From Agathobacter sp. (GTDB taxonomy: Bacteria; Bacillota; Clostridia; Lachnospirales; Lachnospiraceae), in contig JALFLB010000011.1 of assembly GCA_022775045.1 (NCBI GenBank), forward strand, positions 23,384 to 87,383: 64,000 nucleotides of DNA, read 5' to 3'. The position numbers were made by a program, and so were the translations under genes. Every line of letters begins with the position of its first letter. The stretch's first letter is position 1. Positions 3,452 to 61,151 of the stretch are shown here, in pieces. The notes beneath the pieces were generated by a model that was given only the letters and a program-made list of their open reading frames with translations, was not told the origin of the DNA and did not search any database.

Positions 3452-3572
3452 CTCTTATTCAGAGTGATGGAGATACATAGGATCTGTGAAGTCACGGCAA
3501 CCCCTGTTATAGATGAGAATAATCATCATTGTGGAAGGTGCTAACCTGAGCGAGTTTATCGAACAATAAGAG
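3452..3572 (+). ncRNA. SAM-I (S-box) riboswitch aptamer
   Basis: P1 CTCTTATT/AATAAGAG, CAGAG...GGAG, CGGCAACC...GGTGCTAA core; directly upstream of metK and followed by a terminator. Confidence 0.88.
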
Positions 3573-8746: not shown

Positions 8747-8796
8747 ATTCCCATTTTTACCTATTGCAAAATCACAAAAAATAAATTATAATGACC

Positions 8797-8894
8797 TCGT
8801 TATATGACTGACGGAACAAGTGAGGAAGGTTTGAATCACTTAGAATGTGGAGCACCACGTGAAGTATAACGTATATGAGCCGACCGTCTGGGCA
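8797..8894 (+). ncRNA. ZMP/ZTP (pfl) riboswitch
   Basis: TGACTGACGGA...GTGGAGCACCAC...GCCGACCGTCTGGGCA signature upstream of pflB. Promoter TTGCAA-17-TATAAT at 8764-8792. Confidence 0.9.
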
Positions 8895-8917
8895 GAGAAG
8901 CCCGGATGGTCTTTTTT
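8882..8917 (+). terminator. Terminator of the ZTP riboswitch expression platform
   Basis: GACCGTCTGGGC/GCCCGGATGGTC stem (with G.U pairs) plus T-run; the left arm is the aptamer 3' element. Confidence 0.85.
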
Positions 8918-8961: not shown

Positions 8962-11214
8962 ATGGTAGAAATGAAAGAATGGGATGGATTCGAAGGACGT
9001 CTTTGGAAAGAAGAAATTAATGTTCGTCAATTTATTCAGGATAATTATACCCCATATGATGGCAATGAGGAGTTTCTTGCCGGACCGACAGAGTCTACAA
9101 ATAAGTTGTGGGGAGCACTGCAGAAGCTGCAGAAAGAGGAGAGAGCCAAGGGCGGTGTTCTTGATATGGAGACAGAGGTTGTCAGCGGACTTACTGCATA
9201 TGGACCGGGATATATTGACGAGTCCATGAAAGATTTAGAGCAGGTGGTTGGTCTGCAGACAGATAAACCATTAAAGCGCGCATTTATGCCTTATGGTGGA
9301 ATCAAGATGGCAGAGGAGGCCTGTGAGACTTATGGTTATAAGGTAAACCCACAGCTGCATGAGATTTTCACTAAGTATCATAAGACACATAATACCGCCG
9401 TGTTTGATGCATATACACCGGAGATGTTAAAGGTGCGCCATAATAAGATCTTAACCGGGCTTCCGGATACATATGGACGTGGTCGTATTGTTGGTGACTA
9501 CCGCCGTGTTGCATTGTATGGAATTGATTTTTTGATTGAACAGAAGAAGAAGGATAAGGCACATTGTGGAAGCGGAAGCATGAAGGGTGAAGTAATCCGT
9601 TTAAGAGAAGAAATCGCAGAACAGATTAAGGCACTTCAGGGGATGAAGGAGATGGCCGCAATATATGGATACGATATTTCCAAGCCGGCAAAGAACGCAA
9701 AGGAAGCAATTCAGTGGTTATACTTCGGATATCTTGCAGCAATCAAGACCCAGAACGGTGCCGCAATGTCAGTAGGGCGTGTATCTACATTTCTTGATAT
9801 TTATTTTGAACGAGATCTTAAAAAGGGAATCATTACAGAGGCTGAAATTCAGGAACTGGTTGATCACTTTACCATGAAGCTTCGTATGGTGAAATTTGCA
9901 CGTATTCCTTCTTACAATCAGTTATTCTCCGGTGATCCGGTATGGGCAACGCTTGATGTGGCAGGAACCGGTGTGGATGGTCGTTCCATGGTAACAAAGA
10001 CCGATTTCCGTTTCCTTCACACACTTGAGAATATGGGTCCGGCTCCTGAGCCAAACCTGACAGTACTTTACTCATCAAGACTTCCGGAGAATTTCAAGAA
10101 GTATGCGTCAAGAATTTCCATTGAGACAAGCTCTGTTCAGTATGAGAACGATGATGCTATGAAGCCGGTATGGGGCGATGATTACGCAATCTGCTGTTGT
10201 GTATCTGCAACACAGACCGGTAAGGAGATGCAGTTCTTCGGTGCAAGAGCCAACCTTGCAAAGTGCCTGCTTTACGCAATCAATGGTGGAGTGGATGAGA
10301 AGACCGGTGAGCAGGTAGGTCCGAAATACCGTCCGATTACCTCTGAGTATCTGGATTATGATGAGGTAATGGAGCGTTACGATGATATGATGGAGTGGCT
10401 GGCAGATATTTACGTTAACACCCTGAATCTGATTCAGTATATGCATGATAAGTATTACTATGAGGCTGCTGAGCTTGCACTGATGGACACAGACTTAAAA
10501 AGAACTTTCGCAACTGGTATTGCAGGATTCTCACATGTAATCGATTCCCTTTCTGCAATCAAGTATGCCAAGGTAAAGGTAATCCGTGATGAGAACGGTC
10601 TGGCAAAGGATTATGAGGTTGAGGGAGATTTCCCACGCTACGGAAACGATGACGATCGTGCAGATGAGATTGGGGTATGGCTTCTTGGAACATTTATGGA
10701 TAAGATTAAGAGACATCACACCTACCGTCGTTCTGAGCCTACAACCTCCATCTTAACCATTACTTCCAACGTCGTATATGGTAAGGCAACCGGTGCTATG
10801 CCGGATGGACGTAAGGCTGGAGAACCATTGTCACCGGGCGCAAATCCAAGCTATGGTGCAGAGAAGAACGGACTTCTTGCATCTTTAAACTCTTTAACCA
10901 AGTTGCCGTATGAGTGGGCATTGGACGGTATTTCCAACACCCAGACCATCAACCCGGGAGCCCTTGGAAATGAAGAGGGAGAGAGAATTGATAATCTTGT
11001 TCAGGTTATGGACGGCTACTTTGATCAGGGGGCACATCACCTGAACGTTAATGTATTTGGCAAGGAGAAGCTGATTGATGCTATGGAGCATCCGGAGAAA
11101 GAGGAGTATGCAAACTTTACAATACGTGTATCCGGCTATGCAGTTAAGTTTATTGACCTGACCAAGGAACAGCAGTTGGATGTTATCGCAAGAACCTGCC
11201 ATGAGAGAATGTAA
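8962..11214 (+). CDS. pflB: Pyruvate formate-lyase
   Basis: [23 protein letters not shown] active-site cysteines and glycyl-radical motif IRVSGY. Confidence 0.97.
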
Positions 11215-17670: not shown

Positions 17671-19007
17671 AAATAAAACTTCCGAAACAGGTTAATCAAA
17701 TTATTCATACGCTGAAACAGAATGGCTATGACGCATATGCTGTTGGAGGATGTGTCAGGGATACTCTTTTAGGACGCAGCCCGATGGACTGGGATATTAC
17801 CACTTCCGCTCTTCCGCAACAGGTAAAAAGACTCTTTTCCCACACGATTGATACTGGAATCCAGCACGGAACGGTGACAGTCATGCTGGATTATGAGGGG
17901 TACGAGGTCACGACTTATCGGATTGACGGGGAATATGAGGATGCACGTCATCCCAGGGAAGTGATTTTTACCGGAAATCTGGTGGAAGATCTAAAACGCC
18001 GTGACTTTACAATCAATGCGATGGCATATAATGATGAGTCAGGGCTTGTGGATGCATTTGATGGAATCGGAGATCTGCACAAAGGTGTTATTCGTTGTGT
18101 GGGAAATCCTAATGATCGTTTTCAGGAGGACGCACTTCGCATGCTGCGGGCTCTTCGCTTTGCCGCACAGTTGGGATTTTCAATAGAAAAAGAAACGAAA
18201 GCTGCAATTTCGGAGCTTTCCGGGAATCTGGCGAAGGTAAGCGCTGAGCGGATTCAGATGGAGCTGGTCAAGCTTCTGACTTCGGATCATCCACAGGAAA
18301 TCCGTACAGTGTATGAGCTTGGATTGAGCAGGATTTTTCTGCCGGAATTTGACCGGATGATGGAAACCCCACAGAAGAATAAACACCACAGCTATTCTGT
18401 TGGAGAACATACCGTTCACACGTTGCAGGAGATCGAACCGGATAAGGTCCTTCGTCTTACGATGCTGCTTCATGATGTGGCAAAACCGGTATGTATCACC
18501 TGCGATAACCAAGGACAGAATCATTTTAAGGGGCATCCGGCAGAAGGCGCGGTTATGGCACGGGAAATTCTGCGCCGCCTGAAATTTGATAATGATACCA
18601 TAGACCGAGTGTGTTGTCTGATTCGTTATCATGACGATCGGCCGGAGCTGAATCCGCGCAATGTGCGTCGTGCAATGAGCCGGATCAAAATAGAGAATAT
18701 GGAGGCTCTTTTCGCTGTAAAACGTGCAGATACGCTGGGACAAAGTCTGTATCACAGAGAAGAGAAGCTGAAATATATTGATACCTATGAAAGAATGTAT
18801 CGGGAAATTTTGGAACAGGAACAATGCGTACAGAAAAAAGATTTGGCCATTAATGGACGTGATCTTATTGCAATGGGCATGAAACCGGGCAAGGGTCTGG
18901 GGAATGTGCTGGATGCATTGTTTGAGGAAGTACTCGATCATCCGGAATTGAATACAAGGGAGCGCTTATTGGAACTGGCGCATAATTTGACCACCCGTCT
19001 CATATGA
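17667..19007 (+). CDS. cca: CCA tRNA nucleotidyltransferase with HD domain
   Basis: VGGCVRD, DWDITT, RRDFTINA, EDALRMLRALRF and HT...LLHDVAK. Confidence 0.93.
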   Translation: MKIKLPKQVNQIIHTLKQNGYDAYAVGGCVRDTLLGRSPMDWDITTSALPQQVKRLFSHTIDTGIQHGTVTVMLDYEGYEVTTYRIDGEYEDARHPREVIFTGNLVEDLKRRDFTINAMAYNDESGLVDAFDGIGDLHKGVIRCVGNPNDRFQEDALRMLRALRFAAQLGFSIEKETKAAISELSGNLAKVSAERIQMELVKLLTSDHPQEIRTVYELGLSRIFLPEFDRMMETPQKNKHHSYSVGEHTVHTLQEIEPDKVLRLTMLLHDVAKPVCITCDNQGQNHFKGHPAEGAVMAREILRRLKFDNDTIDRVCCLIRYHDDRPELNPRNVRRAMSRIKIENMEALFAVKRADTLGQSLYHREEKLKYIDTYERMYREILEQEQCVQKKDLAINGRDLIAMGMKPGKGLGNVLDALFEEVLDHPELNTRERLLELAHNLTTRLI

Positions 19008-19045
19008 TAGGAACACAGTGAAGTCATATGGGAGGGGTTATTTTG
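18981..19045 (+). promoter_or_regulatory. SigE-type promoter plus RBS-masking hairpin of the CotS-like gene
   Basis: ATA (18982-18984), 16 bp, CATATGAT (19001-19008). Left arm 18994-19007 pairs with 19024-19037, which contains the GGAGGGG RBS. Confidence 0.65.
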
Positions 19046-20023
19046 TATAATCAGCCGGAAACGATTTTGGAGCAATACGACTTGGAAATAAAGCAGATTA
19101 CAAAGGGAAGAGGGGCATATATCTGTGACAGCAATCAAGGTATGAAGCTTTTGATGCCCTTCCGAGGCTCAAAGGAACGTGCTGCTTTTTTGTGTGAGAT
19201 ATTGAGGGATTTGAAAAGCAGGGGCATTGTTGTTGAGCAGGTTTGCATGACAAAAGAAGGGGAGGCTGTTGCATCGGATGAAACAGGCACACGTTACTGG
19301 CTGAAGGATCTCATTGCGGGCAGTGAGTGCAGTACGAGCCGGGAGGCTGATATGATGGGGGCGCTTGGACAGTTGGCCGGACTGCATCGAGCACTTGCTG
19401 CATGTTCGCTTCCGGTTCCGGATTTTATGAAAAATGAACGCAACGAACCAGAGAATATGTATGAGAGACATTATCGGGAATTGATCAAGGTAAAGAACTA
19501 TGTACATACAAGAAAAACCAAGAATGCGTTTGAATATCGATTTGGTGAGCAGTATCCACATTACATCGCGGAAGCAGAGGAAGCACTTGCACTTTTAAAT
19601 CGTCTGAATCAGAGGAGTCTGGATAAGACTGGAAAGCTGTGCCATGGAGATTTTAATCAGCATAATGTTGTGCGGACAGCGGAAGGGTTTTGTATTGTAA
19701 ATTTCGAGAATCTGTGCTGTAATGCCTCTGTGGTGGATCTGGCAAACTTCATTCGCAAGATGATGGAGAAAAATAATTGGGAATCGAGACTGGGAATCCG
19801 TCTGGTGCAGGCATATGATCGGAAACGCCCACTCTCAGAATCGGAGAGACAGCTTTTATATATTCTGTTACTTTTCCCGGAAAAATTCTGGAAAATATCC
19901 AATCATTACAGCAATACACATAAAGCCTGGGTGTCCCAGCGTGATATTGACAAATTGAACCACATGGTTGAAATTGAGCCGGCCCGTGTAAGCTTTTTGC
20001 AAAATTTATTTTCATTCCTTTAA
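19043..20023 (+). CDS. CotS-family spore coat kinase-like protein
   Basis: LCHGDFNQHNV kinase-like motif, LLFPEKFWKISNHY and typical CotS architecture. Start placed at TTG 19043 behind the RBS (the ORF track uses ATG 19028). Confidence 0.82.
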   Translation: MYNQPETILEQYDLEIKQITKGRGAYICDSNQGMKLLMPFRGSKERAAFLCEILRDLKSRGIVVEQVCMTKEGEAVASDETGTRYWLKDLIAGSECSTSREADMMGALGQLAGLHRALAACSLPVPDFMKNERNEPENMYERHYRELIKVKNYVHTRKTKNAFEYRFGEQYPHYIAEAEEALALLNRLNQRSLDKTGKLCHGDFNQHNVVRTAEGFCIVNFENLCCNASVVDLANFIRKMMEKNNWESRLGIRLVQAYDRKRPLSESERQLLYILLLFPEKFWKISNHYSNTHKAWVSQRDIDKLNHMVEIEPARVSFLQNLFSFL

Positions 20024-20028
20024 GAATC

Positions 20029-21264
20029 ATGTATACTAAAGATATGAGAGAAAAAATGTTGAAACGAACAATTACATATGTCATAATGGCTTTTCTTGCG
20101 GTAGTTTTTCTTGCAGCTTGTAAAACGAAGGGCGCAGAAGAGGATGATACAGTATATTTTCATCATTCCATGGCAGATACAGAGACGCAGACAAAAGAGG
20201 TTCAGTCGGGAGAACAGCAGGAATATTATCTGATTACTGAAGTTGATCAGATTCAGGAGACGTTGCAGCTCTATCGCTATGAGAATGGGATGGAATACCG
20301 GTACTATTATGGGACGGGCACACGTTTTTATGATAAGTATGGCAATCGCACAACGGTGAGCAGTTTTAAGCAGGGACTGCTGGTCACCATTGGTGAGGTG
20401 AACAGCGAGGGCATTCTCTGTGAGGCAAGAATCTCTGATCAGGCCTGGGTGTATGAGGATGTCAGCCGGTTTTCTGTGAATCCGCAGCTGCACATGTTTA
20501 AGATTGCGGACAATAAATATAGTTACGATGAGACCACACATATTTTTTCCGGAGATCAACAGGTGCAGATGGAGGACATTGCTAAGGGAGATGTTCTGTC
20601 GGTTGTGGGGGTGGATAAACAGATTCTGTCGGTATGTATTACGACTGCACAGGGAACACTGCAGCTTAAGAATACCAAGCTTTTTGACGGAAGCTTTTTA
20701 CAGCTGGGAAACAGAATCTTTACAGAGATTACAACAGATATGGCATTGAAGGTGCCGGAGGGAACCTATGAGCTGGTCGTTGCGAACAACGGCTGGGGTG
20801 GAAGCACCGAGGTCACGATCGTGCGCGGAGAGACGACTGTTGTGGATCTTGACAGCATCAAGGGAAGTGGACCCAAGCAAGGCAGGATTCAGTTCCTTGT
20901 GGATGTGGAGGACGCAATCCTCATGATTGACGGGGAAGAGACAGATTATGAAAAACCGGTGAAACTGACCTACGGCAGTCACAGCGTGGCTGTATATGCA
21001 CCGGGTTTTGACGTGTGGAAGCGCAACCTTTATGTGAATTCGAAAAAAGCGACGTTACTGATCAGCCTTAAAGATGAAGGGGAGGAAGAGGAGAAAATCG
21101 AAACCGGCGGACAGGCCGGGCAGACGGAAACGCAGAAGACCACGGAATCAACGGCAAAGGAATCAGAAACAAAAAGTGAGAGTGAAAAAAGACAGGAGGA
21201 ACTTGATTTGATTAAAGATTTGATTTCCGGCATGACAGATGCGAGTTCCATTGTGTCAAATTGA
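20029..21264 (+). CDS. PEGA-domain lipoprotein
   Basis: Lipobox LAAC and PEGA-like VDVEDAILMIDG...YGSHSVAVYAPGF; the start may be 20056. Confidence 0.7.
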   Translation: MYTKDMREKMLKRTITYVIMAFLAVVFLAACKTKGAEEDDTVYFHHSMADTETQTKEVQSGEQQEYYLITEVDQIQETLQLYRYENGMEYRYYYGTGTRFYDKYGNRTTVSSFKQGLLVTIGEVNSEGILCEARISDQAWVYEDVSRFSVNPQLHMFKIADNKYSYDETTHIFSGDQQVQMEDIAKGDVLSVVGVDKQILSVCITTAQGTLQLKNTKLFDGSFLQLGNRIFTEITTDMALKVPEGTYELVVANNGWGGSTEVTIVRGETTVVDLDSIKGSGPKQGRIQFLVDVEDAILMIDGEETDYEKPVKLTYGSHSVAVYAPGFDVWKRNLYVNSKKATLLISLKDEGEEEEKIETGGQAGQTETQKTTESTAKESETKSESEKRQEELDLIKDLISGMTDASSIVSN

Positions 21265-21773: not shown

Positions 21774-22013
21774 ATGCGACTGGATAAGTTTTTAAAGGTA
21801 TCCCGGCTGATCAAACGCCGTACTGTGGCGAATGAGGCATGTGATGCAGGACGTGTTATGGTTGGCGGCAAGCCGGCTAAGGCATCTACGAATGTCAAGG
21901 CGGGGGATGAAATCGAGATTCTGTTTGGACAGAAGTCGGTTAAGGTTCGTGTTCTCAGTGTTGCAGATACGATTCGCAAGGAAGATGCAAAGGATCTTTT
22001 TGAATATATTTAA
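21774..22013 (+). CDS. S4-domain RNA-binding protein (YabO/Hsp15-like)
   Basis: MRLDKFLKVSRLIKRRTVANEAC; conserved position upstream of yabP. Confidence 0.92.
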   Translation: MRLDKFLKVSRLIKRRTVANEACDAGRVMVGGKPAKASTNVKAGDEIEILFGQKSVKVRVLSVADTIRKEDAKDLFEYI

Positions 22014-22078
22014 CATAAAAAGTACATCTCCTCATATAGTAAATATATAAAATATTACAGGGAGGAGAAGGAATCATG
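22014..22078 (+). promoter_or_regulatory. SigE-type promoter plus anti-RBS of yabP
   Basis: ATA (22015-22017), 15 bp, CATATAGT (22033-22040). TCTCCTC (22027-22033) is the exact reverse complement of RBS GAGGAGA (22062-22068). Confidence 0.65.
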
Positions 22079-22357
22079 GAAGAAAAAAAGGTGACGGGAA
22101 CGCATAAGCTGATGCTGAAGGACCGGAAAAACGGGAGCTTTACGGGGGTATTGGATGTACTTTCGTTTGATTTGAATGAGATTTTGCTTGAGACAGAATG
22201 TGGAATGCTCCATCTGAAAGGAAAAGATCTTCATGTAAATCGGTTGGATCTTGAGAAGGGCGAGGTTGATATTGACGGACAGATTGATGCTCTGAATTAT
22301 TCACAGGTGCCGGGAATCGGGAAGAAGGGCAGCATGCTCGGAAAGCTGTTTAAGTAA
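22076..22357 (+). CDS. yabP: Sporulation protein YabP
   Basis: HKLMLKDRK...TGVLDVLSFD...GMLHLKGKDLHVNRLDLEKG; synteny. Confidence 0.92.
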   Translation: MEEKKVTGTHKLMLKDRKNGSFTGVLDVLSFDLNEILLETECGMLHLKGKDLHVNRLDLEKGEVDIDGQIDALNYSQVPGIGKKGSMLGKLFK

Positions 22358-22758
22358 TGCAGCCGGTTTCTGGACTTGAAATAGAACTGGCTTTGTTCTT
22401 GCGTTCTCTTTTGCTGGGAGCAGGTCTGTTGGCAGTTTATGATGGAATCCGGATTTTTCGTAGATTTTTTTCGCATGGAATGCTTTGGATTTCATTGGAG
22501 GATGCTGTGTATTGGACGGCGGCAGCAATCTTTTTTTTTCTTCAATTATGTGAGGTAAATAATGGAATCATAAGAGGATACATCTTACTTGGAATGGCAC
22601 TTGGCGCATGGATTTATTACTGTCTGCTGAGCAGGTTTGTGATGCGCAGACTGTCAAAAGTGATTATGCGTGCAAAAAAGCGATTGAAAAAAGTGAGGAA
22701 AGCGGCTACAATAAAAATAAGTAAATGGAAAAAGTCAGGAAGGACGGAGGAAAACTAA
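22357..22758 (+). CDS. yabQ: Spore cortex protein YabQ
   Basis: Hydrophobic protein with YDGIRIFRR...EDAVYW...NNGIIRGY and a basic tail; follows yabP. Confidence 0.88.
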   Translation: MQPVSGLEIELALFLRSLLLGAGLLAVYDGIRIFRRFFSHGMLWISLEDAVYWTAAAIFFFLQLCEVNNGIIRGYILLGMALGAWIYYCLLSRFVMRRLSKVIMRAKKRLKKVRKAATIKISKWKKSGRTEEN

Positions 22759-23057
22759 TGAGCCGCAGGAAAAAGGGGAGACGCCGCGGCACCGGAATGG
22801 TGAGCATTACGGTAATTGTTCTTGCATTTATGGTGGTGATGGCGGTTCAGATTTATAGAATCAAAGAAAAAGATGATGCGTATGTTGCGCGCGAGCAGGA
22901 ACTGAAGCAGGAATATCAGGATGAGACACAGCGAGCATCGGAGATTGGTGATCTTGAGACTTATATGAAGTCATCGGAATATATTGAAGATGTGGCAAAG
23001 AGTAAGTTGGGTCTGACTTATAAGAACGAGATTATTTTTAAGGAAAGCAGGGATTAA
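22758..23057 (+). CDS. divIC: Septum formation initiator (DivIC/FtsB family)
   Basis: Basic N-terminus, one TM helix, coiled coil and EYIEDVAKSKLGL; synteny. Confidence 0.82.
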   Translation: MSRRKKGRRRGTGMVSITVIVLAFMVVMAVQIYRIKEKDDAYVAREQELKQEYQDETQRASEIGDLETYMKSSEYIEDVAKSKLGLTYKNEIIFKESRD

Positions 23058-42000: not shown

Positions 42001-42063
42001 ATAAAGTTCTCTCTCTTTGAATAAGTATTTTTATACGAAGTTTGAAGAGAGGGAATTTTTTTG
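42001..42063 (+). promoter_or_regulatory. SigE-type promoter plus RBS-masking hairpin of the SPOCS-LysM gene
   Basis: ATA (42001-42003), 16 bp, AATAAGT (42020-42026). 16-bp stem 42003-42018 / 42044-42059 (3 G.U pairs) covers the RBS. Confidence 0.65.
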
Positions 42064-43626
42064 ATGGAGTTAAAGAAACAGTCATTTAATCAGAATTTGC
42101 AAAAAGGAAAGGCTTTCACACAGGTAACACTGGACGATGACTGCATTGTTCGTGATAGTAAGCCTGATGTCATCAAGATTATACATACGAAAGGCAGTAT
42201 TATTTTTGAAGAGGTTAAAGTAAGCAGCCAGACAGTCTGGGTTACCGGACAGTTAAAATTTACTGTGCTTTACCGTAGTGATGGGGGTGGTAATAAACTG
42301 GAAACATTATCTGATTCTGTGAATTTTGGTGAAAAAATATTCATGGATGAAGTGGAGGAACTAGATCAGGTAAAATTGAGTGGACGGCTTGAGGATCTGA
42401 GCATTACGGCCATTAATTCCCGTAAATTGGCAGTGCGTGCGGTGGTGGGGATTCAGGCAGTTTGCGAACAGCAGGAGGAAGAGGAGCTGGTAAGTTCTGT
42501 GATTGCTGGAGAGGAGGTTCAGCAGCGGAAGGAAACCCGTCAGATGTTATTGCTCATGACCTCCAAAAAAGATCTGATACGTACACACAATGAGATGACT
42601 TTGCCTGGAAGTAATCCGAATGTGGGCCGAATCATTTACTATCATGTAGATATTCGAAACAAAGAAGTCGTGCTTACGGGGAATCTTGTCCAGATGAAGG
42701 GGGAAGCTTTTCTCAGCGTGCTGTATCTGAGTGTGGAAGGTCAGATGGAGTGGTATGAGACAATGGCTCCTTTTACGGGAAGCATGGATTGTGAGACAGG
42801 CGGTCAGCAGCCTATTTATTGGATTCGCACGAATCCGGCAGATATAGAATTAGAACTGATTGGAGACTATGATGGGGAAATGCGTAGTCTGAGTCTGGAT
42901 ATGACATTTGATGTGGATATAAAAATCTGGCAGGAACAGGAGATGGAGATTTTAGCGGATGTGTATTCACTATCAGAAAATTTGATTCCTCAGACACAGC
43001 AAACACGCACATGGAAGCTTTTGGTAAAAAACGAAGCAAAACTCCGGGTATCCCAGCAAATGAAATTGGCGGATGGACAGGAGCGTATTTTACAGTTGTG
43101 CTCTTATGAAGGAACAGTTGCAATCGATCAGATAGAACCGGTTGACAATGGTCTTAAGGTTGAGGGAATCCTGTCTGTACATATTCTTTATGCAACAACG
43201 GATGACAGTTTTCCGGTTGCCCATACCTTTGAACAGCTGCCTTTTACACAGATTATAGATGTGCAGGGAATGGCAGCAAATGCAAGGGATATAGTCTATG
43301 AACTGGAGCCGGGAATTGATCAGCTTGCAGTGAATCTTTTGGATAATGAGAGATATGAAATCAAAGCATCGATATCATTGGCTGCACTGGTATTGAAGGA
43401 AGAATGTTTCGATAAGATTGTAGAAATCCGGGAAGAAGCGCTTGATGTGGAGCAGCTTTCGAATCAGCCGGGGATAACCGGTTACATGGTACGTTCGGAG
43501 GAATCACTTTGGGATATTGCAAAAAGATATCACACAACGGAAGATGAGATTATGCGTACTAATGGGCTCAAGTCTCGTAATTTCAGAGGGGGTGAGAAAT
43601 TAGTGATTGTAAAAAGTGTTAGCTGA
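42061..43626 (+). CDS. SPOCS (DUF3794) repeat plus C-terminal LysM spore coat morphogenetic protein (SipL-like)
   Basis: Three DUF3794-like repeats and LysM YMVRSEESLWDIAKRYHTT. Confidence 0.85.
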   Translation: MMELKKQSFNQNLQKGKAFTQVTLDDDCIVRDSKPDVIKIIHTKGSIIFEEVKVSSQTVWVTGQLKFTVLYRSDGGGNKLETLSDSVNFGEKIFMDEVEELDQVKLSGRLEDLSITAINSRKLAVRAVVGIQAVCEQQEEEELVSSVIAGEEVQQRKETRQMLLLMTSKKDLIRTHNEMTLPGSNPNVGRIIYYHVDIRNKEVVLTGNLVQMKGEAFLSVLYLSVEGQMEWYETMAPFTGSMDCETGGQQPIYWIRTNPADIELELIGDYDGEMRSLSLDMTFDVDIKIWQEQEMEILADVYSLSENLIPQTQQTRTWKLLVKNEAKLRVSQQMKLADGQERILQLCSYEGTVAIDQIEPVDNGLKVEGILSVHILYATTDDSFPVAHTFEQLPFTQIIDVQGMAANARDIVYELEPGIDQLAVNLLDNERYEIKASISLAALVLKEECFDKIVEIREEALDVEQLSNQPGITGYMVRSEESLWDIAKRYHTTEDEIMRTNGLKSRNFRGGEKLVIVKSVS

Positions 43627-43678
43627 TGATAAGATTTTTAGGTAATTATTTTAAAAATATATACAAGAGGAGAAAGAT

Positions 43679-44947
43679 ATGGATAACGATAATAATAAAA
43701 ATTCATTTCAGGACTATTCTGCACCTGAACCCTATGATCCGGATGCACAGTATGGATTTCCATCCCGTAATGCAGCGCAGACAGATCAGCAGACCACCCA
43801 GCAGCAGTATACGCAGCAGACCGATCAGCAGACTGTGGGGCAGACGGCACAGAGTACCGGTGGTTATAATCTGAACGGACAGTATTACCAGAATAGCAGT
43901 GGCAGCTATAATGCGGGAACGGGAAATCCGAATGCAGCGTATGGAATGCCAAACGATAGTGGATATCATTATGGAGGCGGCGATTACGGTTCTACTGCAA
44001 GAACCGTTCCGCTTGACAGGAAAGGGCGGCCGCTTCGAAACCGGTTTGGAATGAAATTGACCTTTTCCATTCTTGGAGTTGTTTTTGGGCTGATTTTTAT
44101 GTTTTTGAGTCCGTGTTATGGGCTGATACCGCTTGTTTTGTCTATTATTGCGCTGGTATTTACCTGTATGCAGAATAAACATTATAAAGAAGGAAACTGG
44201 CCTGTTTTCCAATCGACGGCAAAAGTTTCGGCGGTACTGCTCTGGGTGAATCTTGGAGTTTGGGTTGTAATCCTGATTTTCTTTATCATTGCAATGATTG
44301 TTTTATTCTCAATTGGAAATGATTTTTTTGATGAACTTGGGCTTGATGATATGAATCTTCCATCGTCCGGTTATGAATCTGATTATGGTTCAGATGATAA
44401 GGATGATGCTCCGGTGAAAAAAGATGGGGAGATTCATAGTCTGGAAGGGGAGCGAGTACCGGATGTAGAAGGGTTCAACCAGTTTACGCTTCAGGGGGAG
44501 ACATTTACTATTCCGATGTCCGTGGATGATTTTTATGAAGCAGGATTTTATCTGCAGGAGGATTCACAGAAGGAGAATTTGGAACCGGAGAACTCCAACG
44601 GATACGCTTATTATGATGCGGACGGGAATTATCTGGGGACGCTTTTTGTGTACAATACAACAGATAGATCCATTCAGGTGAAAGACGGTATGATCGGTGG
44701 AATTACGGTTAATCAAATAGACGGAATCGATTTTCAGATGGTTGGAGGATTGACATTTGACAGTTCGCTGAAGGATGCTGCAGCAGTGTTGGGAACAGCT
44801 GTTACGGACATGGATGAATCTGGTGCATATGGGTATTATCAATGGTATTTTGAAAATGGCGGTTATGCAACTAGTGTGGAGCTGGATTTTGATGAGGATA
44901 AGATGAATGAGGTCTGGATCATGAACTATGCAGAATTGAAAGATTAA
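43679..44947 (+). CDS. Hypothetical membrane protein with a Q/T/Y/G-rich low-complexity N-terminus
   Basis: 422-aa ORF with a good RBS, TM segments in the middle and an acidic C-terminal domain. Confidence 0.75.
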   Translation: MDNDNNKNSFQDYSAPEPYDPDAQYGFPSRNAAQTDQQTTQQQYTQQTDQQTVGQTAQSTGGYNLNGQYYQNSSGSYNAGTGNPNAAYGMPNDSGYHYGGGDYGSTARTVPLDRKGRPLRNRFGMKLTFSILGVVFGLIFMFLSPCYGLIPLVLSIIALVFTCMQNKHYKEGNWPVFQSTAKVSAVLLWVNLGVWVVILIFFIIAMIVLFSIGNDFFDELGLDDMNLPSSGYESDYGSDDKDDAPVKKDGEIHSLEGERVPDVEGFNQFTLQGETFTIPMSVDDFYEAGFYLQEDSQKENLEPENSNGYAYYDADGNYLGTLFVYNTTDRSIQVKDGMIGGITVNQIDGIDFQMVGGLTFDSSLKDAAAVLGTAVTDMDESGAYGYYQWYFENGGYATSVELDFDEDKMNEVWIMNYAELKD

Positions 44948-49825: not shown

Positions 49826-52531
49826 TTGGTACTTGGAATTCTGGCACATGTAGATGCAGGTAAGACAACTTTATCAGAGGCAATGCTCTATACCACAGGG
49901 CAGATTCGGACACTCGGCAGAGTCGATCATCAGGACGCTTATCTGGATACGGATGAACAGGAAAGAAAGCGTGGAATAACGATTTTTTCCAAACAGGCCC
50001 GTTTGAAAGACTGGACTCTTCTTGATACCCCGGGACATGTGGATTTTTCTGCAGAGATGGAGCGGACTCTGCAGGTTCTTGATTATGCAATTCTTGTAAT
50101 CAGCGGTACGGATGGTGTGCAGGGGCACACCCGTACTCTGTGGCGGCTTCTTCGCCATTATGAGATTCCCACATTCATTTTTGTGAATAAGATGGATTTG
50201 CCTGGGGCAGATCGTGCTTTTGTACAGACACAGCTTAAGAAGGAACTGTCGGATGGCTGTGTGGATTTTACCCAGAGTCAGGAGGCTGAGGGGGAACTGA
50301 CGGATGCATTTTATGAGGAGATTGCGGTCTGTGGAGAGGACTTTCTGGATGAATACATGCACAATGGGGAGATTGCGATTGACCACATTGCGGAAGGAAT
50401 CACTCAGAGACTTGTATTCCCTTGTTTTTACGGTTCAGCACTCCGGCTGGAGGGAATTGAAACATTTCTTACAGGACTTTCCCGGTATATGCGAAAGCCG
50501 GATTATGGTAGTGATTTTGCTGCACGGGTTTACAAAATTGGGCGGGATGTGCGTGGTGCGCGCCTGACCTATTTGAAAGTGACTGGTGGAAAGCTGCGGG
50601 TGAAAGAACGGATTTCCTACGATGGTCTGGAGGAGAAGGTGGATCAGATCCGGCTCTATTCCGGGGATAAGTATGAGACTACGGAGGAACTTGCGGCAGG
50701 TGAGGTCTGTGCGGTGACCGGGCTTACTGCTACATATCCAGGGCAGGGACTGGGGGCAGAGCAGGCGACAAGCGCTCCTTTGCTGGAGCCGGTATTAAAT
50801 TATCAGATAAGACTTCCGCAGGATGTCAATCCGGTTGAGATGATGGGAAAGCTCAAATTGCTGGAAGAGGAAGATCCGCAGCTTCACATTCTCTGGAATG
50901 AACAGCTGCAGGAGATCCATGTGCAGATGATGGGGCAGGTGCAGATTGAAGTACTGACTCAGCTCATCAAAGAGCGGTTTGGTGTTGTGGTTGCCTTTGG
51001 CCAGGGGAATATCGTCTATAAAGAGACGATTGCAAAACCAGTGGAGGGAATCGGACACTTTGAGCCGCTGCGCCATTATGCTGAGGTGCATCTGCTGTTA
51101 GAGCCGGCGGAGCCGGGAAGTGGGATTCAGGTATCCAGCGTTTGTAGTGAAGATGTGCTGGATTTAAATTGGCAGCGCCTGATTGCGACTCATGTGACGG
51201 AGCGGGAGCATCCCGGGGTACTGACCGGTTCGGTACTTACGGATGTGAAAGTTACAATTTTGACGGGACGTGCCCACACGAAGCATACAGAGGGCGGAGA
51301 TTTCCGGCAGGCAACCTACCGTGCCATCCGGCAGGGACTCAAAAGCACCCGGAGTGTACTCTTGGAGCCGATGTATGCCTTTTCCTTAGAAGTGCCGCAG
51401 GAGACGGTGGGACGGGCTATGACAGATTTAAAACAGCGCTGTGGAATGTTTGATTCACCGCAGTTTGTTTCCGGCTCACATGGGGATATGGCAGTGTTGA
51501 CCGGTAAAGTCCCAGTTTCTACCATGCAGGATTACAGCGCGGAAGTGGCAGCCTATACAAGCGGAAAGGGACATCTGACGCTGGAGTTGGCTGGGTATGA
51601 TGTGTGCCACAACAGCGAGGAAGTAATTGCATCTATTGGTTACGACAGCGAGGCGGATACAGCCAATCCGACGGGCTCGGTGTTCTGTGCGCACGGTGCA
51701 GGCTTTCTTGTACCGTGGGATGAGGTGGACCGCTATATGCATCTGGAGCGGGTCATTGATTCGAATCAATATACGTTAGCAGCAGGAAATGGACGCACCT
51801 ATGATATGACAGGAGCAGCTTACAGTGCCGGGGAAGCAGATTCCCTGACCGGAATTAAGAGGCGCGGAAGCTGGGAGAAGTCCGTGTCTAATATGAGCTC
51901 CTTAGAACTGGACAAGGAACTGGCGGATGTGTACGCCAGAGAGTTTGGCATGAGCCGGGAGGACATGGAAGAGCAGGAGCGACGCAAATGGAGTCAGAAG
52001 AAGCCGGATAAGTTAAAGGCACCCACAGTAAAGCATGATAAAAAGGGAAATCCAATCTACCCGGCCAAGGGACCACAGGAGCGTATGCTTGTGGTGGATG
52101 GTTATAACATTATTTTTGCTTGGAAGGATCTGAACGAATTGTCCCGGGTGAATATTGCTTCGGCAAGGGATCGGCTAAAGGATATTCTGCTTAATTATCA
52201 GGGGTATGAAGGCTGCCGTCTGGTTGTGGTTTTCGATGCCTATAAGGTAAAGGATAATGCTGGAAAGAAGGAATTCTATGACGGGAGGCGAAAGCGTCAG
52301 GGCGCAGGAAATCCGTCCGGCGATATTGGAATTGAAGTGGTGTACACCCGCACCGATGAGACTGCCGATGCTTATATTGAGAGGCTGGTGCATGATGAGA
52401 AGGGACATTACCATATCTCCGTTGCCACAAATGACGGGCTGGTGCAGCTTACGGTTATGAGTCAGGGTGCCCTTCGTATGTCGGCGGAGAATCTGCGTGA
52501 GGAGATTGCGAGAGCCGGGCAAAAAGGATAA
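49826..52531 (+). CDS. EF-G/TetM-like translational GTPase fused to a C-terminal NYN (YacP/Rae1-like) domain
   Basis: AHVDAGKTT, RGITI, DTPGH and NKMD, EF-G domains II-V, then VDGYN...VFDA...ETAD...ATND; TTG start. Confidence 0.9.
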   Translation: MVLGILAHVDAGKTTLSEAMLYTTGQIRTLGRVDHQDAYLDTDEQERKRGITIFSKQARLKDWTLLDTPGHVDFSAEMERTLQVLDYAILVISGTDGVQGHTRTLWRLLRHYEIPTFIFVNKMDLPGADRAFVQTQLKKELSDGCVDFTQSQEAEGELTDAFYEEIAVCGEDFLDEYMHNGEIAIDHIAEGITQRLVFPCFYGSALRLEGIETFLTGLSRYMRKPDYGSDFAARVYKIGRDVRGARLTYLKVTGGKLRVKERISYDGLEEKVDQIRLYSGDKYETTEELAAGEVCAVTGLTATYPGQGLGAEQATSAPLLEPVLNYQIRLPQDVNPVEMMGKLKLLEEEDPQLHILWNEQLQEIHVQMMGQVQIEVLTQLIKERFGVVVAFGQGNIVYKETIAKPVEGIGHFEPLRHYAEVHLLLEPAEPGSGIQVSSVCSEDVLDLNWQRLIATHVTEREHPGVLTGSVLTDVKVTILTGRAHTKHTEGGDFRQATYRAIRQGLKSTRSVLLEPMYAFSLEVPQETVGRAMTDLKQRCGMFDSPQFVSGSHGDMAVLTGKVPVSTMQDYSAEVAAYTSGKGHLTLELAGYDVCHNSEEVIASIGYDSEADTANPTGSVFCAHGAGFLVPWDEVDRYMHLERVIDSNQYTLAAGNGRTYDMTGAAYSAGEADSLTGIKRRGSWEKSVSNMSSLELDKELADVYAREFGMSREDMEEQERRKWSQKKPDKLKAPTVKHDKKGNPIYPAKGPQERMLVVDGYNIIFAWKDLNELSRVNIASARDRLKDILLNYQGYEGCRLVVVFDAYKVKDNAGKKEFYDGRRKRQGAGNPSGDIGIEVVYTRTDETADAYIERLVHDEKGHYHISVATNDGLVQLTVMSQGALRMSAENLREEIARAGQKG

Positions 52532-57761: not shown

Positions 57762-57821
57762 GAATATGTAATACATCCCCTGCATAGACTGTACAAACAG
57801 ATATGCAGGGGTATTTTTTTG
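57762..57821 (+). promoter_or_regulatory. SigE-type promoter plus RBS-masking hairpin of spoIIID
   Basis: ATA (57764-57766), 16 bp, CATAGACT (57783-57790). CCCCTGCATA (57777-57786) and TATGCAGGGG (57802-57811) form a perfect 10-bp repeat. Confidence 0.7.
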
Positions 57822-58076
57822 AAAACATATATTGAAGAACGCGCTGTGGAAATCGCGAATTATATCATTGAACACAATGCCACCGTGCGGCAGGCTGCGA
57901 AGAGTTTTGGCATTAGTAAAAGTACTGTACATAAGGATGTTACCGAGCGGCTGACGCAGATTAATCCCGGACTTGCAGCGGAAACCCGAAAGGTGATTGA
58001 TGTGAACAAGTCTGAACGTCATATTCGTGGCGGAATGGCAACCAAAGAAAAATATGCACATCAACATGTAATGTAG
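57819..58076 (+). CDS. spoIIID: Sporulation transcriptional regulator SpoIIID
   Basis: YIEERAVEIANYII...TVRQAAKSFGISKSTVHKDVTERL...RHIRGGMATKEKY; TTG start. Confidence 0.96.
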   Translation: MKTYIEERAVEIANYIIEHNATVRQAAKSFGISKSTVHKDVTERLTQINPGLAAETRKVIDVNKSERHIRGGMATKEKYAHQHVM

Positions 58077-58240
58077 GAACGTGGTATCAGCAAGGCACTG
58101 GCAGCAGTGTCTTGCCACCATCTTGCGTGAAATTATATAATTATTTTACTGACAAAAGAGAGAAAGATTAGGAGTGGAAAAAAAGATAGGTAGTATGTAT
58201 AATGGAGCAGGAACAATAATATTTACCATGAGAGGTGCAT

Positions 58241-58876
58241 ATGAATATAAAGAGAGAACAGCTGAAATTGTATGCGGTGACGGACCGCAGCTGGCTTGGC
58301 GATGAAACCTTATATGAGCAGGTGGAAAAAGCGCTGAAGGGAGGCGCGACCATGGTGCAGCTTCGTGAAAAGAATCTGGACGAGGAGACTTTCGTTCAGG
58401 AGGCGGAGGAAATCATGGAATTGTGCCATAGATATCAGGTGCCGTTTATTGTAAATGATAATGTGGAGTTGGCGAAACGTATCGGAGCTGATGGGGTTCA
58501 TATCGGACAAGCAGATATGGAGCTGGAGCAGGCGAGAAAACTTCTTGGCGCAGATGCAATTATCGGTGTGACGGCAAAGACGATTCAGCAGGCAAAAGCT
58601 GCTGAAGAGGGCGGCGCAGATTATCTTGGAAGCGGTGCGGTCTTTGGCAGCAGTACAAAGCCGGATGCAAAGCCGATGGATCACGCGTTGCTGCAGGAAA
58701 TCTGCGGGAGTGTGGAGATTCCGGTTGTGGCAATCGGTGGAATTTCGGCTGCGAATGTAATGCAGCTGAAAGGCAGAGGAATGGCCGGAGTTGCTGTGGT
58801 CAGTGGAATTTTTGCGTGTGAGGATATTGAGGCCGGAACAAAAGAACTGTGTGAACTTGTAGAGCATATTATATAG
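58241..58876 (+). CDS. thiE: Thiamine-phosphate synthase
   Basis: LYAVTD, VQLREK, IVNDN, GVHIGQAD, STKPD and VAIGGI. Confidence 0.95.
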   Translation: MNIKREQLKLYAVTDRSWLGDETLYEQVEKALKGGATMVQLREKNLDEETFVQEAEEIMELCHRYQVPFIVNDNVELAKRIGADGVHIGQADMELEQARKLLGADAIIGVTAKTIQQAKAAEEGGADYLGSGAVFGSSTKPDAKPMDHALLQEICGSVEIPVVAIGGISAANVMQLKGRGMAGVAVVSGIFACEDIEAGTKELCELVEHII

Positions 58877-58937
58877 GATAAGTGTTTTCAAAATGCAATT
58901 GATGTTTTGATTATATATGGACGCAGAAGGAGAGAAT

Positions 58938-59732
58938 ATGAACACAGCATTAACAATTGCCGGAAGTGATTCCAGCGGAGGCGCTGGAATTCAGGCCGAT
59001 ATTAAGACAATGACTGCCAATGGTGTGTATGCCATGAGCGCAATCACGGCACTTACCGCACAGAATACAATGGGAGTGGCAGATATTATGGAGGTGACAC
59101 CGGATTTTCTGGAAAAGCAGATTGATTGCATTTTTACGGACATTTATCCGGATGCGGTCAAGACAGGAATGGTGTCTTCTGCTGCGCTGATCGAGGTGAT
59201 TGCGGACAAGCTGAAAACCTACAGTGCAAAAAATATTGTTGTGGATCCGGTTATGGTGGCTACCAGCGGAGCCAGGCTGATCAGTGAGGAAGCAGTTGAT
59301 ATCATGAAAGAAAAGTTGTTGCCAATTGCTACTCTCATTACGCCGAATATTCCGGAAGCGGAAGTGCTTGCCAAAATGGAAATCACGACTCAGGAGAATA
59401 TGGAAATGGCAGCAGCACGCATTTGTGAAGCTTACGGATGTGCAGTTCTTTTAAAAGGTGGTCATCAGCTGAATGATGCAAACGATCTGCTGTATTGCAG
59501 TGGGGAGGAACCGGTGTGGTTTCATGGAAAGCGGATTAACAATCCCAATACACACGGAACCGGTTGTACGCTCTCGAGTGCAATCGCATCGAATCTTGCT
59601 AAAGGATACGATTTGAAAACTGCCGTGAAGAACGCGAAGGATTATATCTCGGGTGCATTGGCAGCGATGCTCGACCTTGGAAAGGGCAGTGGTCCGATGA
59701 ATCATGCTTTTGCAATTATGAATAACAGATAG
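58938..59732 (+). CDS. thiD: Hydroxymethylpyrimidine/phosphomethylpyrimidine kinase
   Basis: LTIAGSDSSGGAGIQAD, DPVMV, TPNIPEA and THGTGCT. Confidence 0.96.
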   Translation: MNTALTIAGSDSSGGAGIQADIKTMTANGVYAMSAITALTAQNTMGVADIMEVTPDFLEKQIDCIFTDIYPDAVKTGMVSSAALIEVIADKLKTYSAKNIVVDPVMVATSGARLISEEAVDIMKEKLLPIATLITPNIPEAEVLAKMEITTQENMEMAAARICEAYGCAVLLKGGHQLNDANDLLYCSGEEPVWFHGKRINNPNTHGTGCTLSSAIASNLAKGYDLKTAVKNAKDYISGALAAMLDLGKGSGPMNHAFAIMNNR

Positions 59733-59754
59733 AGAAAGAGAGATTGATTGTACG

Positions 59755-60291
59755 ATGGAGAAACAAGCAGGAAGAAATAGTATAAAGAAATTAACATTGA
59801 CGGCATTTTTTACGGCAGTCGCCGTGATAGGAAGTTTGTTTTCCTTCCCGGTATTCGGGTCAAAATGTGCGCCGGTACAGCATCTGGTAAATGTGCTGTG
59901 TGCGGTTACGGTCGGTCCGTGGTGGGGGCTTGCGCAGGCGTTTATGGCGGCACTTTTGCGCAATCTGCTCGGGCTTGGCAGTCCGCTGGCGTTTCCAGGA
60001 AGCATGTGTGGAGTGCTTCTGGCAGGATTACTCTATAAATATGGGAAAAAATTGCCGTTTGCTTATGTGGGAGAGGTGTTTGGGACAGGAATTCTTGGAG
60101 GTATGCTTTCTTACCCGATTGCCGCTTTTGTCATGGGGAATAAAGAGGCTGCGCTGTTTACTTTCGTGGTGCCATTTCTGATCAGCACCTGTGGGGGAAC
60201 CCTGATTGCAGCAGCGATAACAATTCCGATGAAAGCCTCCGGATTGCTTGCGCGGATGGGGCAGAGTCTGGATGGAGAACCGGTAAAATGA
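59755..60291 (+). CDS. thiW: ECF transporter S component ThiW
   Basis: CAPVQHLVNVL...LLRNLLGLGSPLAFPGSMCG...EVFGTG. Confidence 0.88.
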   Translation: MEKQAGRNSIKKLTLTAFFTAVAVIGSLFSFPVFGSKCAPVQHLVNVLCAVTVGPWWGLAQAFMAALLRNLLGLGSPLAFPGSMCGVLLAGLLYKYGKKLPFAYVGEVFGTGILGGMLSYPIAAFVMGNKEAALFTFVVPFLISTCGGTLIAAAITIPMKASGLLARMGQSLDGEPVK

Positions 60292-61151
60292 AACTGACGA
60301 AACAATATGTGGCTGATATCTATAAAAAAATAAAGGAGCAGCGTCCGATTATTCACTGCATCACCAACGCGGTGACGGTGAATGACTGTGCGAATATTCT
60401 TCTGGCTTTAGGCGCTTCGCCGACGATGGCACATCATCCACTCGAGGTAGGTGAGATTACACAAGGGGCAAAGAGTCTGGTCTGCAATTTTGGCGCAATT
60501 GGAGATTATGAGGCAATGCTGGCAGCTGCAATGCGTGCCCACGAACTGGGACACCCTATCGTCATTGATCCGGTAGGTGTATCCGGCTCATCGTACCGAC
60601 GGGAGCATGCCCTTAATTTGATTGACAAGGTCAGACCGGGTTGCATTCGTGGCAACTATTCTGAGATTCGGGCGTTGCTTGAAAACTGTGGGACTGTGAC
60701 CGGCGTGGATGCCGCCGAGGCGGATCAGGATGCCGATCATCAGGCGGCATTGATCGAAGTAATGAAGGAATATGCAGATGAAAAACAGACTATTTTAATT
60801 GCATCCGGGAAGACGGATATCATTACGGATGGAAATGTCACATATCTGTGTGAAAACGGAGATCCGCTAATGGCAAAAATTACGGGAAGCGGCTGTATGT
60901 CTTCAGTGATGCTTGGAGCATTTTTGGGGGTGGAGGAGTCGGTAGAATGTGCCGCGGCCTGCTGTAGCTTTATGGGTATCGCAGGTGAGCTTGCAGCTGA
61001 GAGAGCACGTGCTTGTGGTGGTGGAACCATGACGTTTCGTGATTATATGATTGATGCGGTATCAATGATGAAAGAAGAGGATTTTGGCAGAGTATCCTGT
61101 TGGAAAACGGACTGCGTCTTTTTACAACGGATAGGAGAAAAAAGAGATTAA
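60288..61151 (+). CDS. thiM: Hydroxyethylthiazole kinase
   Basis: HCITNAVTVNDCAN, PTMA, DPVG, IRGNYSEI and ITGSGCM. Confidence 0.95.
   Translation: MKLTKQYVADIYKKIKEQRPIIHCITNAVTVNDCANILLALGASPTMAHHPLEVGEITQGAKSLVCNFGAIGDYEAMLAAAMRAHELGHPIVIDPVGVSGSSYRREHALNLIDKVRPGCIRGNYSEIRALLENCGTVTGVDAAEADQDADHQAALIEVMKEYADEKQTILIASGKTDIITDGNVTYLCENGDPLMAKITGSGCMSSVMLGAFLGVEESVECAAACCSFMGIAGELAAERARACGGGTMTFRDYMIDAVSMMKEEDFGRVSCWKTDCVFLQRIGEKRD

Follow-up and report, generated by a model that had tools for sequence, protein, structure and literature searches.

Sporulation gene promoters nested in hairpins that pair the ribosome-binding site in Agathobacter and related Lachnospiraceae

Four sporulation genes in a 64,000-nucleotide stretch of Agathobacter sp. 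DNA (hereafter the window), namely spoIIID, yabP, a SipL-like gene and a CotS-like gene, are each preceded by a hairpin with the ribosome-binding site (RBS) of that same gene in its 3′ arm and with a 5′ arm situated in the promoter region. These hairpins are conserved in Lachnospiraceae orthologs, their arms co-evolve and they are specific to sporulation genes. With somewhat more confidence than doubt, we read them as composite insulators, in which a promoter is nested in a hairpin that is both terminator and anti-RBS and that shields sporulation genes from upstream transcription.

According to this model, the hairpin would span the gene's own sporulation promoter. The 5′ arm would be formed by the spacer and the −10 element (in the case of the CotS-like gene inside the end of the upstream gene), the loop would contain the start site along with what remains of the −10, and the 3′ arm would be the short 5′ UTR with its Shine-Dalgarno (SD) sequence, beyond which there is usually a U-tract extending into the start codon. 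RNA polymerase coming in from the upstream gene would transcribe both arms, and hairpin and U-tract would terminate most of this transcription; in the residual read-through transcript the RBS would stay paired and the gene untranslated. A sporulation sigma factor would initiate inside the loop and give an mRNA with the 3′ arm only, which for that reason would neither terminate nor hide its RBS. Both termination and the translational block are thus activities that we infer.

The genes were identified with NCBIfam and Pfam as SpoIIID (TIGR02844), YabP (TIGR02892), a CotS family protein (TIGR02906) and a SipL-like protein with three SPOCS domains (PF12673 x3) and a LysM domain, and the neighbouring cca, hup, S4-domain protein and veg genes were assigned in the same way. 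The promoters, arms and tails of the four elements are on the plus strand, as are the upstream genes (cca, the S4-domain gene, veg and a membrane-protein gene), which end 0-75 nt before the elements. An earlier, sequence-only reading of this DNA had claimed four inverted repeats with the anti-RBS arm within the promoter spacer or −10, and at each of the four sites both can be read directly from the letters. The B. subtilis SigE consensus consists of a −35 ATA motif, a spacer of about 14-16 nt and a −10 CATAcanT. To the promoters proposed in that reading (ATA, 15-16 nt, CATA-n3-T), spoIIID, yabP and the CotS-like gene fit exactly, whereas the fit of SipL is loose. An ATA motif is also described for sigmaE of C. 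difficile, where spoIIID and sipL are SigE-dependent (PMC3789822); for the spoIIID and sipL genes of the window, SigE dependence is suggested by homology only.

At spoIIID (coding sequence 57819-58076, 130.8 bits to TIGR02844), the −35 ATA is found at 57764-57766 and is at least 90% conserved in an alignment of 72 Lachnospiraceae spoIIID upstream regions. The −10 CATAGACT (57783-57790) has a CATA..T that is invariant or nearly so in the alignment, as is a GTAAAAA block, and a conserved GTAcAAA lies directly 3′ of the −10. The last six spacer nucleotides and the CATA of the −10 make up the 5′ arm CCCCTGCATA (57777-57786), a perfect complement of the 3′ arm TATGCAGGGG (57802-57811), which holds the RBS (AGGGG). 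The arms form 10 of 10 Watson-Crick pairs, and an inner 4-bp stem leaves an apical loop of 4 nt. Promoter geometry predicts the start site at about 57796-57799. A T7 tract (57814-57820) runs into the TTG start codon (57819-57821), so that tract and codon together occupy 57814-57821.

The yabP promoter (22015-22040) has ATA at 22015-22017, a 15-nt spacer and CATATAGT at 22033-22040, and its −35 region adjoins the stop codon of the S4-domain gene (22011-22013). Its 5′ arm TCTCCTC (22027-22033) and its 3′ arm GAGGAGA, the RBS (22062-22068), pair at 7 of 7 positions across a 28-nt loop; there is no T-run, and the ATG is at 22076. The putative SipL promoter (42001-42027) has ATA at 42001-42003, a 16-nt spacer and the loosely matching AATAAGTA at 42020-42027. 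The core of the SipL hairpin, 42003-42018 with 42044-42059, has 16 pairs including three G-U, and the fold extends it to 20 consecutive pairs between a 5′ arm at 42003-42022 and a 3′ arm at 42040-42059 that includes the RBS GAGAGGGA. A T7 tract is found at 42056-42062, and the start is either TTG at 42061 or ATG at 42064. The CotS-like promoter (18982-19008), with ATA at 18982-18984, a 16-nt spacer and CATATGAT at 19001-19008, is conserved in orthologs. Both this promoter and the 5′ arm (18994-19007) overlap the last part of cca (stop codon at 19005-19007). This arm pairs with 19024-19037 at 13 of 14 positions including one G-U, and the 3′ part of the element (19024-19045) comprises the RBS GGGAGGGG (19030-19037), the tail TTATTTTG and a likely TTG start at 19043.

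At each of 55 curated gene starts in the window, the best duplex between the RBS region (−20 to −3) and the 60 nt upstream was determined and compared with shuffled controls. The CotS-like gene (−23.9 kcal/mol, z −4.9), SipL (−20.1 kcal/mol, z −6.3) and spoIIID (−19.0 kcal/mol, z −4.9) occupy ranks 1-3 of 55, and 0 of 200 shuffles match their duplex energy, so a chance origin of these three pairings is excluded. For yabP the window duplex is weaker (−12.4 kcal/mol, z −2.6, p = 0.02), and its orthologs carry much stronger versions. After these genes the next best gene of the window has z −3.0 and all others lie above −2.5; spoIIE, hup, veg, ftsH and the remaining window genes gave no RBS-to-upstream pairing signal in the 55-gene test. 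Enrichment over shuffled controls, for which the sequence-only reading had proposed a genome-wide check, is found within the window, with three of the four sites top-ranked. Long RNAs that include the 5′ arm fold with the RBS paired at −24 (spoIIID), −11.3 (yabP), −29.6 (SipL) and −21.5 (CotS-like) kcal/mol; when cut back to the predicted start site, the RNAs fold at 0 to −4.8 kcal/mol.

An Rfam 15 scan of the window gave no covariance-model match at the four sites at gathering score, and its only matches were a SAM riboswitch, a ZTP riboswitch and one tRNA. The SAM riboswitch (3452-3572) lies upstream of metK (3646-4827), and the ZTP (pfl-motif) riboswitch (8794-8900) lies upstream of a pyruvate formate-lyase gene (8962-11214) and its activase gene. 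Downstream of spoIIID there is a thiamine operon (thiE, thiD, thiW, thiM; 58235-61151) with a good SigA-like promoter, TTGCCA-18-TATAAT, at 58112-58141 (within 58077-58234); no TPP riboswitch was detected upstream of it at Rfam gathering score. Elsewhere in the window, a 901-aa ORF (49826-52531) joins an EF-G/Tet(M)-like protein (GTP_EFTU, EFG_III, EFG_IV, EFG_C) to a C-terminal YacP-like NYN nuclease (residues 755-899), which is an unusual fusion unless the ORF call merged two genes.

The organism is a member of the Lachnospiraceae from pig gut, close to Lachnobacterium and Agathobacter. Conservation was assessed in 80 spoIIID loci, 80 yabP loci, in which the CotS-like gene is also found some 3 kb further upstream, and 3+80 SipL loci; single-protein scans for SipL gave 3 loci in genome contigs and 0 in metagenome contigs, and an alignment query was used for the larger set. 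The hairpin is found in 55-100% of the upstream regions of the four families: CotS-like orthologs (n = 55) have a median of −21.6 kcal/mol with 82% at z<−3, yabP orthologs (n = 80) −15.6 kcal/mol with 55%, and spoIIID orthologs (n = 78) −16.2 kcal/mol with 56%. In SipL, the hairpin is present in 23 of 23 unique upstream regions (median −23.4 kcal/mol, 100%) at protein identities down to 39%. Nine control families from the same loci (cca, g20029, hup, yabO, yabQ, divIC, tilS, hpt, ftsH) have a median z of about 0, with 0-3% at z<−3. A strong hairpin is absent in 20-45% of orthologs.

The promoters are conserved along with the hairpins. In spoIIID, ATA-N16-CATAcAaTGTAAAAA is invariant in the 72 loci, almost all loci have the −10 at −36 ± 2 relative to the start codon, and the alignment shows no conservation upstream of the −35. 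The spoIIID 5′ arm takes two forms, being either the promoter spacer itself (for example AACCCCTCAGAATACTT / AAGTATTCTGAGGGGTT, 17 bp, in locus L077) or, as in the window, a C-run plus the GCATA of the −10. Orthologs of yabP have the promoter TCATAA-N14-AATATAGT and a stem of 12-13 bp with a 4-nt loop and T5-6, which resembles textbook terminators, and distant SipL orthologs have GAATAAA-N14-AATAGAATGTAC, closer to the SigE motif than the SipL promoter of the window. The ORF upstream of spoIIID is co-directional in 60 of 76 orthologs, at a median intergenic distance of about 115 nt. In some loci where the nearest upstream ORF looks divergent, according to heuristic ORF calls, the spoIIID hairpin is kept and is only slightly weaker; this speaks against an insulating role, as read-through would be of less consequence there. 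Four Herbinix-like loci (L041, L050, L056, L060) have a second hairpin (GCGTTCC...GGAACGC) after the −10 hairpin, about 100 nt upstream of the spoIIID start. An ATG right after GGGGG opens a 5-codon uORF or an in-frame N-terminal extension in these loci, the annotated ATG of spoIIID lacks a separate RBS, and the arrangement resembles the usd-spoIIID coupling of B. subtilis.

Since the arms change register between clades and, in the spoIIID clade examined column by column, are mostly conserved, co-evolution was assessed by a swap test, in which each species' own arms are compared with arms exchanged between species. Own arms pair better than swapped arms in spoIIID (−16.4 vs −11.5 kcal/mol, p 2e-11), yabP (−14.9 vs −10.8 kcal/mol, p 5e-13) and CotS (−19.6 vs −16.2 kcal/mol, p 6e-8), and the nine control families show no effect beyond a nominal one (divIC, p 0.04). 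SipL arms are wholly different between clades and still complementary at the same positions (ACGCTTTTCTCC/GGATGGGAGCGT, ACTCTCTAATTC/GGATTGGAGAGT, GTTCTCTCTCTT/AAGAGAGGGAAT). Covariation in orthologs, another check put forward with the original claim, is thus supported by the swap test, but a column-wise count in a 26-sequence spoIIID sub-alignment barely rises above shuffles (79.9% paired vs 78.3% shuffled, with 24 of 500 shuffles as high); slid registers of the same sub-alignment are 38-64% paired. Plus- versus minus-strand duplex energy was considered as a sign of RNA-level selection and discarded, as control genes are equally asymmetric because a G-rich SD can wobble-pair.

The tail of the hairpins points to a second activity. 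Among hairpin families, the spacer between SD and start codon has a mean of 3.8-6.3 T per nine bases vs 1.3-3.5 in controls, and T-runs of at least 4 are found in 40-100% of cases. In the window, the U-tract is T7 in spoIIID, T7 in SipL and TTATTTT in CotS, and yabP has none. When the tail is left out of the pairing, stem strength still varies with the T-tail in spoIIID (rho −0.54, p 4e-7), CotS (rho −0.64, p 4e-7) and yabP (rho −0.25, p 0.03), all values being uncorrected for phylogeny. Between the upstream stop codon and the element, cca, veg and the membrane-protein gene have no room for another terminator. Because hairpin strength correlates with the T-run, the element probably also serves as the intrinsic terminator of the upstream gene, and termination is at least as likely a function as translational gating. 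A simple terminator scan called none of the four window sites. Several of the hairpins have loops of 14-28 nt, and such long loops are atypical for efficient intrinsic terminators; in the folds, outer loops measure 15-28 nt, and inner stems in spoIIID and SipL leave apical loops of 4 nt. The proposal that read-through RNA folds and hides the RBS agrees with the folding of the long RNAs, but the U-tracts suggest that gating alone is an incomplete account.

Start codons follow the same trend. TTG accounts for 67% of spoIIID, 71% of CotS-like and 100% of SipL orthologs, vs ATG in at least 86% for most control families (the exceptions being ftsH with 82% TTG and yabQ with 65% ATG). The TTG codons at 57819, 19043 and 42061 and in their orthologs form the end of the U-tract, which may explain the unusual TTG frequency at these genes.

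RNA evidence came from assembled metatranscriptome contigs of run X25, whose ends are imprecise; a second metatranscriptome run added nothing. The contigs span 57812-58029 (spoIIID), 42055-44885 (SipL through the next gene), 19040-20530 (CotS-like) and 22119-23051 (yabPQ-divIC, ending at the divIC terminator), and none of them holds a 5′ arm; RNA reading in from an upstream gene was not seen. The spoIIID contig has a depth of 47.8 vs 4.3 for the upstream gene (about 11-fold) and also breaks off some 90 nt early on its 3′ side, showing how imprecise contig ends are. These contigs are consistent with start sites in the loop and with independent promoters, at a resolution too coarse for proof. 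A start site between the arms, as originally proposed, is also what promoter geometry predicts, placing +1 in the loop, and it is from this geometry together with the coarse contigs that we infer the start-site position. The spoIIID mRNA should lack the 5′ arm, since its promoter sits in the loop, and the same would apply to the other genes' own mRNAs. The mother-cell sporulation genes have depths of 10-48 in X25, comparable with hup (17.7) or higher, and for this reason the organism appears to be sporulating in the gut sample.

Reach beyond the four genes was assessed in 745 gene starts of the first 163 loci with thresholds of dG <= −15 and z <= −3.5. Of the starts belonging to the four families, 76 of 136 pass, vs 9 of 609 other starts, one of the nine being a CotJA/B-like gene. 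A second scan (554 starts) gave clusters of matches only at SipL, CotJA and an amidohydrolase gene that heads some cotJ operons (2 amidohydrolase genes). Gathered through CotJC, 80 cotJ operons yielded 59 unique upstream regions, of which 51% have z<−3 (swap test p 1e-6), making the cotJ operon a fifth family that was not part of the original claim. Many of these regions have a 20-25 bp hairpin, AAAAACTCCTTT..GCAGATACTA / TAGTAT..GCAGGAAAGGAGTTTTTT-ATG. In C. difficile, cotJ-like operons are SigK-dependent (PMC3789822). The first gene of Lachnospiraceae cotJ operons (L153 2381-2821; L164-L243) usually encodes one protein of about 145-165 aa directly upstream of cotJC, in which CotJA-like and CotJB-like motifs occur together, suggesting a fusion.

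A SigA-type promoter (TTGACA-N17-TATAAT) precedes some Agathobacter spoIIE genes (L092, L101, L117, L119, L123, L129) at a distance of about 60 nt. Its spacer ends just 5′ of TATAAT in (G/A)ACCTC, the complement of the GGAGGT that serves as RBS some 25 nt further on (swap test p 3e-7). No T-run follows these elements, and the window's own spoIIE (23232) lacks the arrangement. SigE-type promoters, which the sequence-only reading had given as the setting, are hence too narrow a description: the arrangement is not tied to SigE as such, because some SigA-type spoIIE promoters have it, and the cotJ operon carries it as well. The "genome-wide design rule" suggested there is supported in that the arrangement recurs, is conserved and is sporulation-specific, but its scope is five gene families in about 2 Mb of related loci. 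A strict SigE-motif scan of the first 163 loci gave almost no SigE-like promoters outside the families already studied, for which reason there is no comparison set of hairpin-free SigE promoters. A SpoIVA search with an approximate B. subtilis query sequence had only Bacillaceae among the matches listed and added no sixth Lachnospiraceae family.

Several other explanations account for parts of these observations. The hairpins could merely be the upstream genes' intrinsic terminators, for which the following gene, through its G-rich RBS and its U-rich spacer, incidentally provides the 3′ half, RBS occlusion being unselected. The T-runs after most stems and their correlation with hairpin strength agree with this, as do the lack of any other candidate terminator behind cca, veg and the membrane-protein gene and, in yabP orthologs, the classical stem with its 4-nt loop and T5-6. 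We nevertheless consider it unlikely: a strong hairpin is kept in a third of low-T spoIIID loci, the spoIIE versions pair the SD with the spacer without any T-run, and at a median spoIIID intergenic distance of about 115 nt an overlap with promoter and RBS is not forced. Moreover, five independent families use the RBS as 3′ arm, whereas ordinary terminators at the same loci, such as that after hup, involve no RBS. The opposite simplification, on which the original claim was based, is that the hairpin serves solely to mask the RBS of read-through mRNA and has no role in termination. It has the sigG precedent (PMC5942855) on its side, along with spoIIE, some spoIIID cases and the yabP site of the window, none of which has a U-tract. 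It is at odds with the U-tracts, which are strongly enriched and correlate with stem strength, and TTG starts at 67-100% in three families suggest selection on the U-tract itself, so that pure gating seems improbable to us.

A start site upstream of the 5′ arm would instead mean that the gene's own transcript carries the hairpin, which would repress or attenuate translation until opened by uORF translation, a helicase or a protein. This finds some support in B. subtilis, where the uORF usd upstream of spoIIID is needed for spoIIID translation (Decatur 1997, as cited in PMC4474612) and where sigG mRNA has a small RBS hairpin of its own (PMC5942855); the second hairpin and small uORF of the four Herbinix-like loci fit it too, and contig ends are compatible with a start site a few nucleotides upstream of the arm. 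We give this explanation slightly less credence than pure gating. The invariant SigE-type −35 and −10 at fixed spacing inside the hairpin put +1 in the loop and nothing upstream is conserved, the CotS 5′ arm is within the cca coding sequence and the yabP −35 adjoins the yabO stop, and the predicted spoIIID 5′ UTR of the window has no RBS-led uORF, usd-like candidates being found only in those four loci. Finally, palindromes that flank or overlap the −10 might be DNA operators of a dimeric regulator overlapping the promoters. This is very improbable, as the arms remain complementary although their sequences vary by gene and species, the SD invariably forms one of them, and the G-U pairs (three in SipL, one in CotS) would be mismatches in a DNA palindrome.

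The composite insulator, the reading we prefer, would make sense of the location of these genes. Leaky growth-phase expression of mother-cell regulators and coat morphogenetic proteins is likely harmful, and an insulator built in without additional sequence would explain why sporulation genes of compact gut Firmicute genomes can lie just behind vegetative genes with high expression (veg, cca and hup/yabO, for example). In Lachnospiraceae, and perhaps in wider Clostridia, nesting of the promoter in a hairpin could be a regulon-wide rule for developmentally timed sporulation genes (mother-cell SigE/SigK and some Spo0A/SigA genes such as spoIIE), giving two-layer transcriptional and translational insulation against vegetative read-through and a signature by which the sporulation regulons and start sites of uncultured spore-formers of the gut may be predicted from DNA alone. 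We offer this generalization tentatively and would rate its chances at a little under even. If general, the arrangement would provide a DNA-only marker of mother-cell promoters in uncultured Lachnospiraceae and, as a terminator with a promoter inside it, a naturally occurring part for synthetic insulation, and it would join sigG, usd-spoIIID and IS10 under one principle.

The sigG gene (spoIIIG) of B. subtilis, cited in the sequence-only reading as a single-gene precedent, is a real one. In transcripts from the upstream spoIIG operon a large hairpin sequesters its RBS, and its own sporulation promoter starts inside the hairpin, so that the resulting mRNA cannot form the structure (PMC5942855). 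The pairing of the RBS in read-in transcripts and the promoter inside the hairpin are as predicted here. The sigG case differs in that it concerns one gene with a forespore (SigF/SigG) promoter in Bacilli, with no terminator role described, whereas here at least five mother-cell gene families of Lachnospiraceae are involved, the 5′ arm is in the spacer and −10, and a U-tract is usually next. The RBS of B. subtilis spoIIID is held in a stem-loop, so that in usd-spoIIID the same gene has its RBS in a hairpin. There, however, the SigE promoter is upstream of usd and the hairpin is in the gene's own mRNA, to be opened by uORF translation; here a uORF is missing from the predicted UTR of about 22 nt, and the 5′ arm belongs to the promoter.

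In fold-back inhibition of IS10, the translation start of the transposase is base-paired, in transcripts from outside, with a segment further upstream, and the element's own promoter lies inside the pairing; the schemes of IS50 and IS3 are similar. Protection of IS10/Tn10 from external promoters was described by Davis, Simons & Kleckner 1985, as cited in PMC13181058. IS10 is a mobile element of Enterobacteria, whereas the present elements belong to chromosomal developmental genes and have an intrinsic-terminator tail. With Rho-independent terminators they share a GC-rich stem followed by a U-tract just after the upstream stop codon, but they differ in having long loops or inner stems, a complete promoter and start site inside the hairpin, an RBS as 3′ arm, and a U-tract that ends in the start codon. 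A literature search found the sigG, usd and IS10 precedents and no description of a recurrent regulon-level arrangement, and recurrence across a regulon thus appears undescribed. The type of mechanism is already known; what is new is that it recurs in at least five families, that the 5′ arm lies within the promoter, and that the hairpin is fused to a U-tract ending in the start codon.
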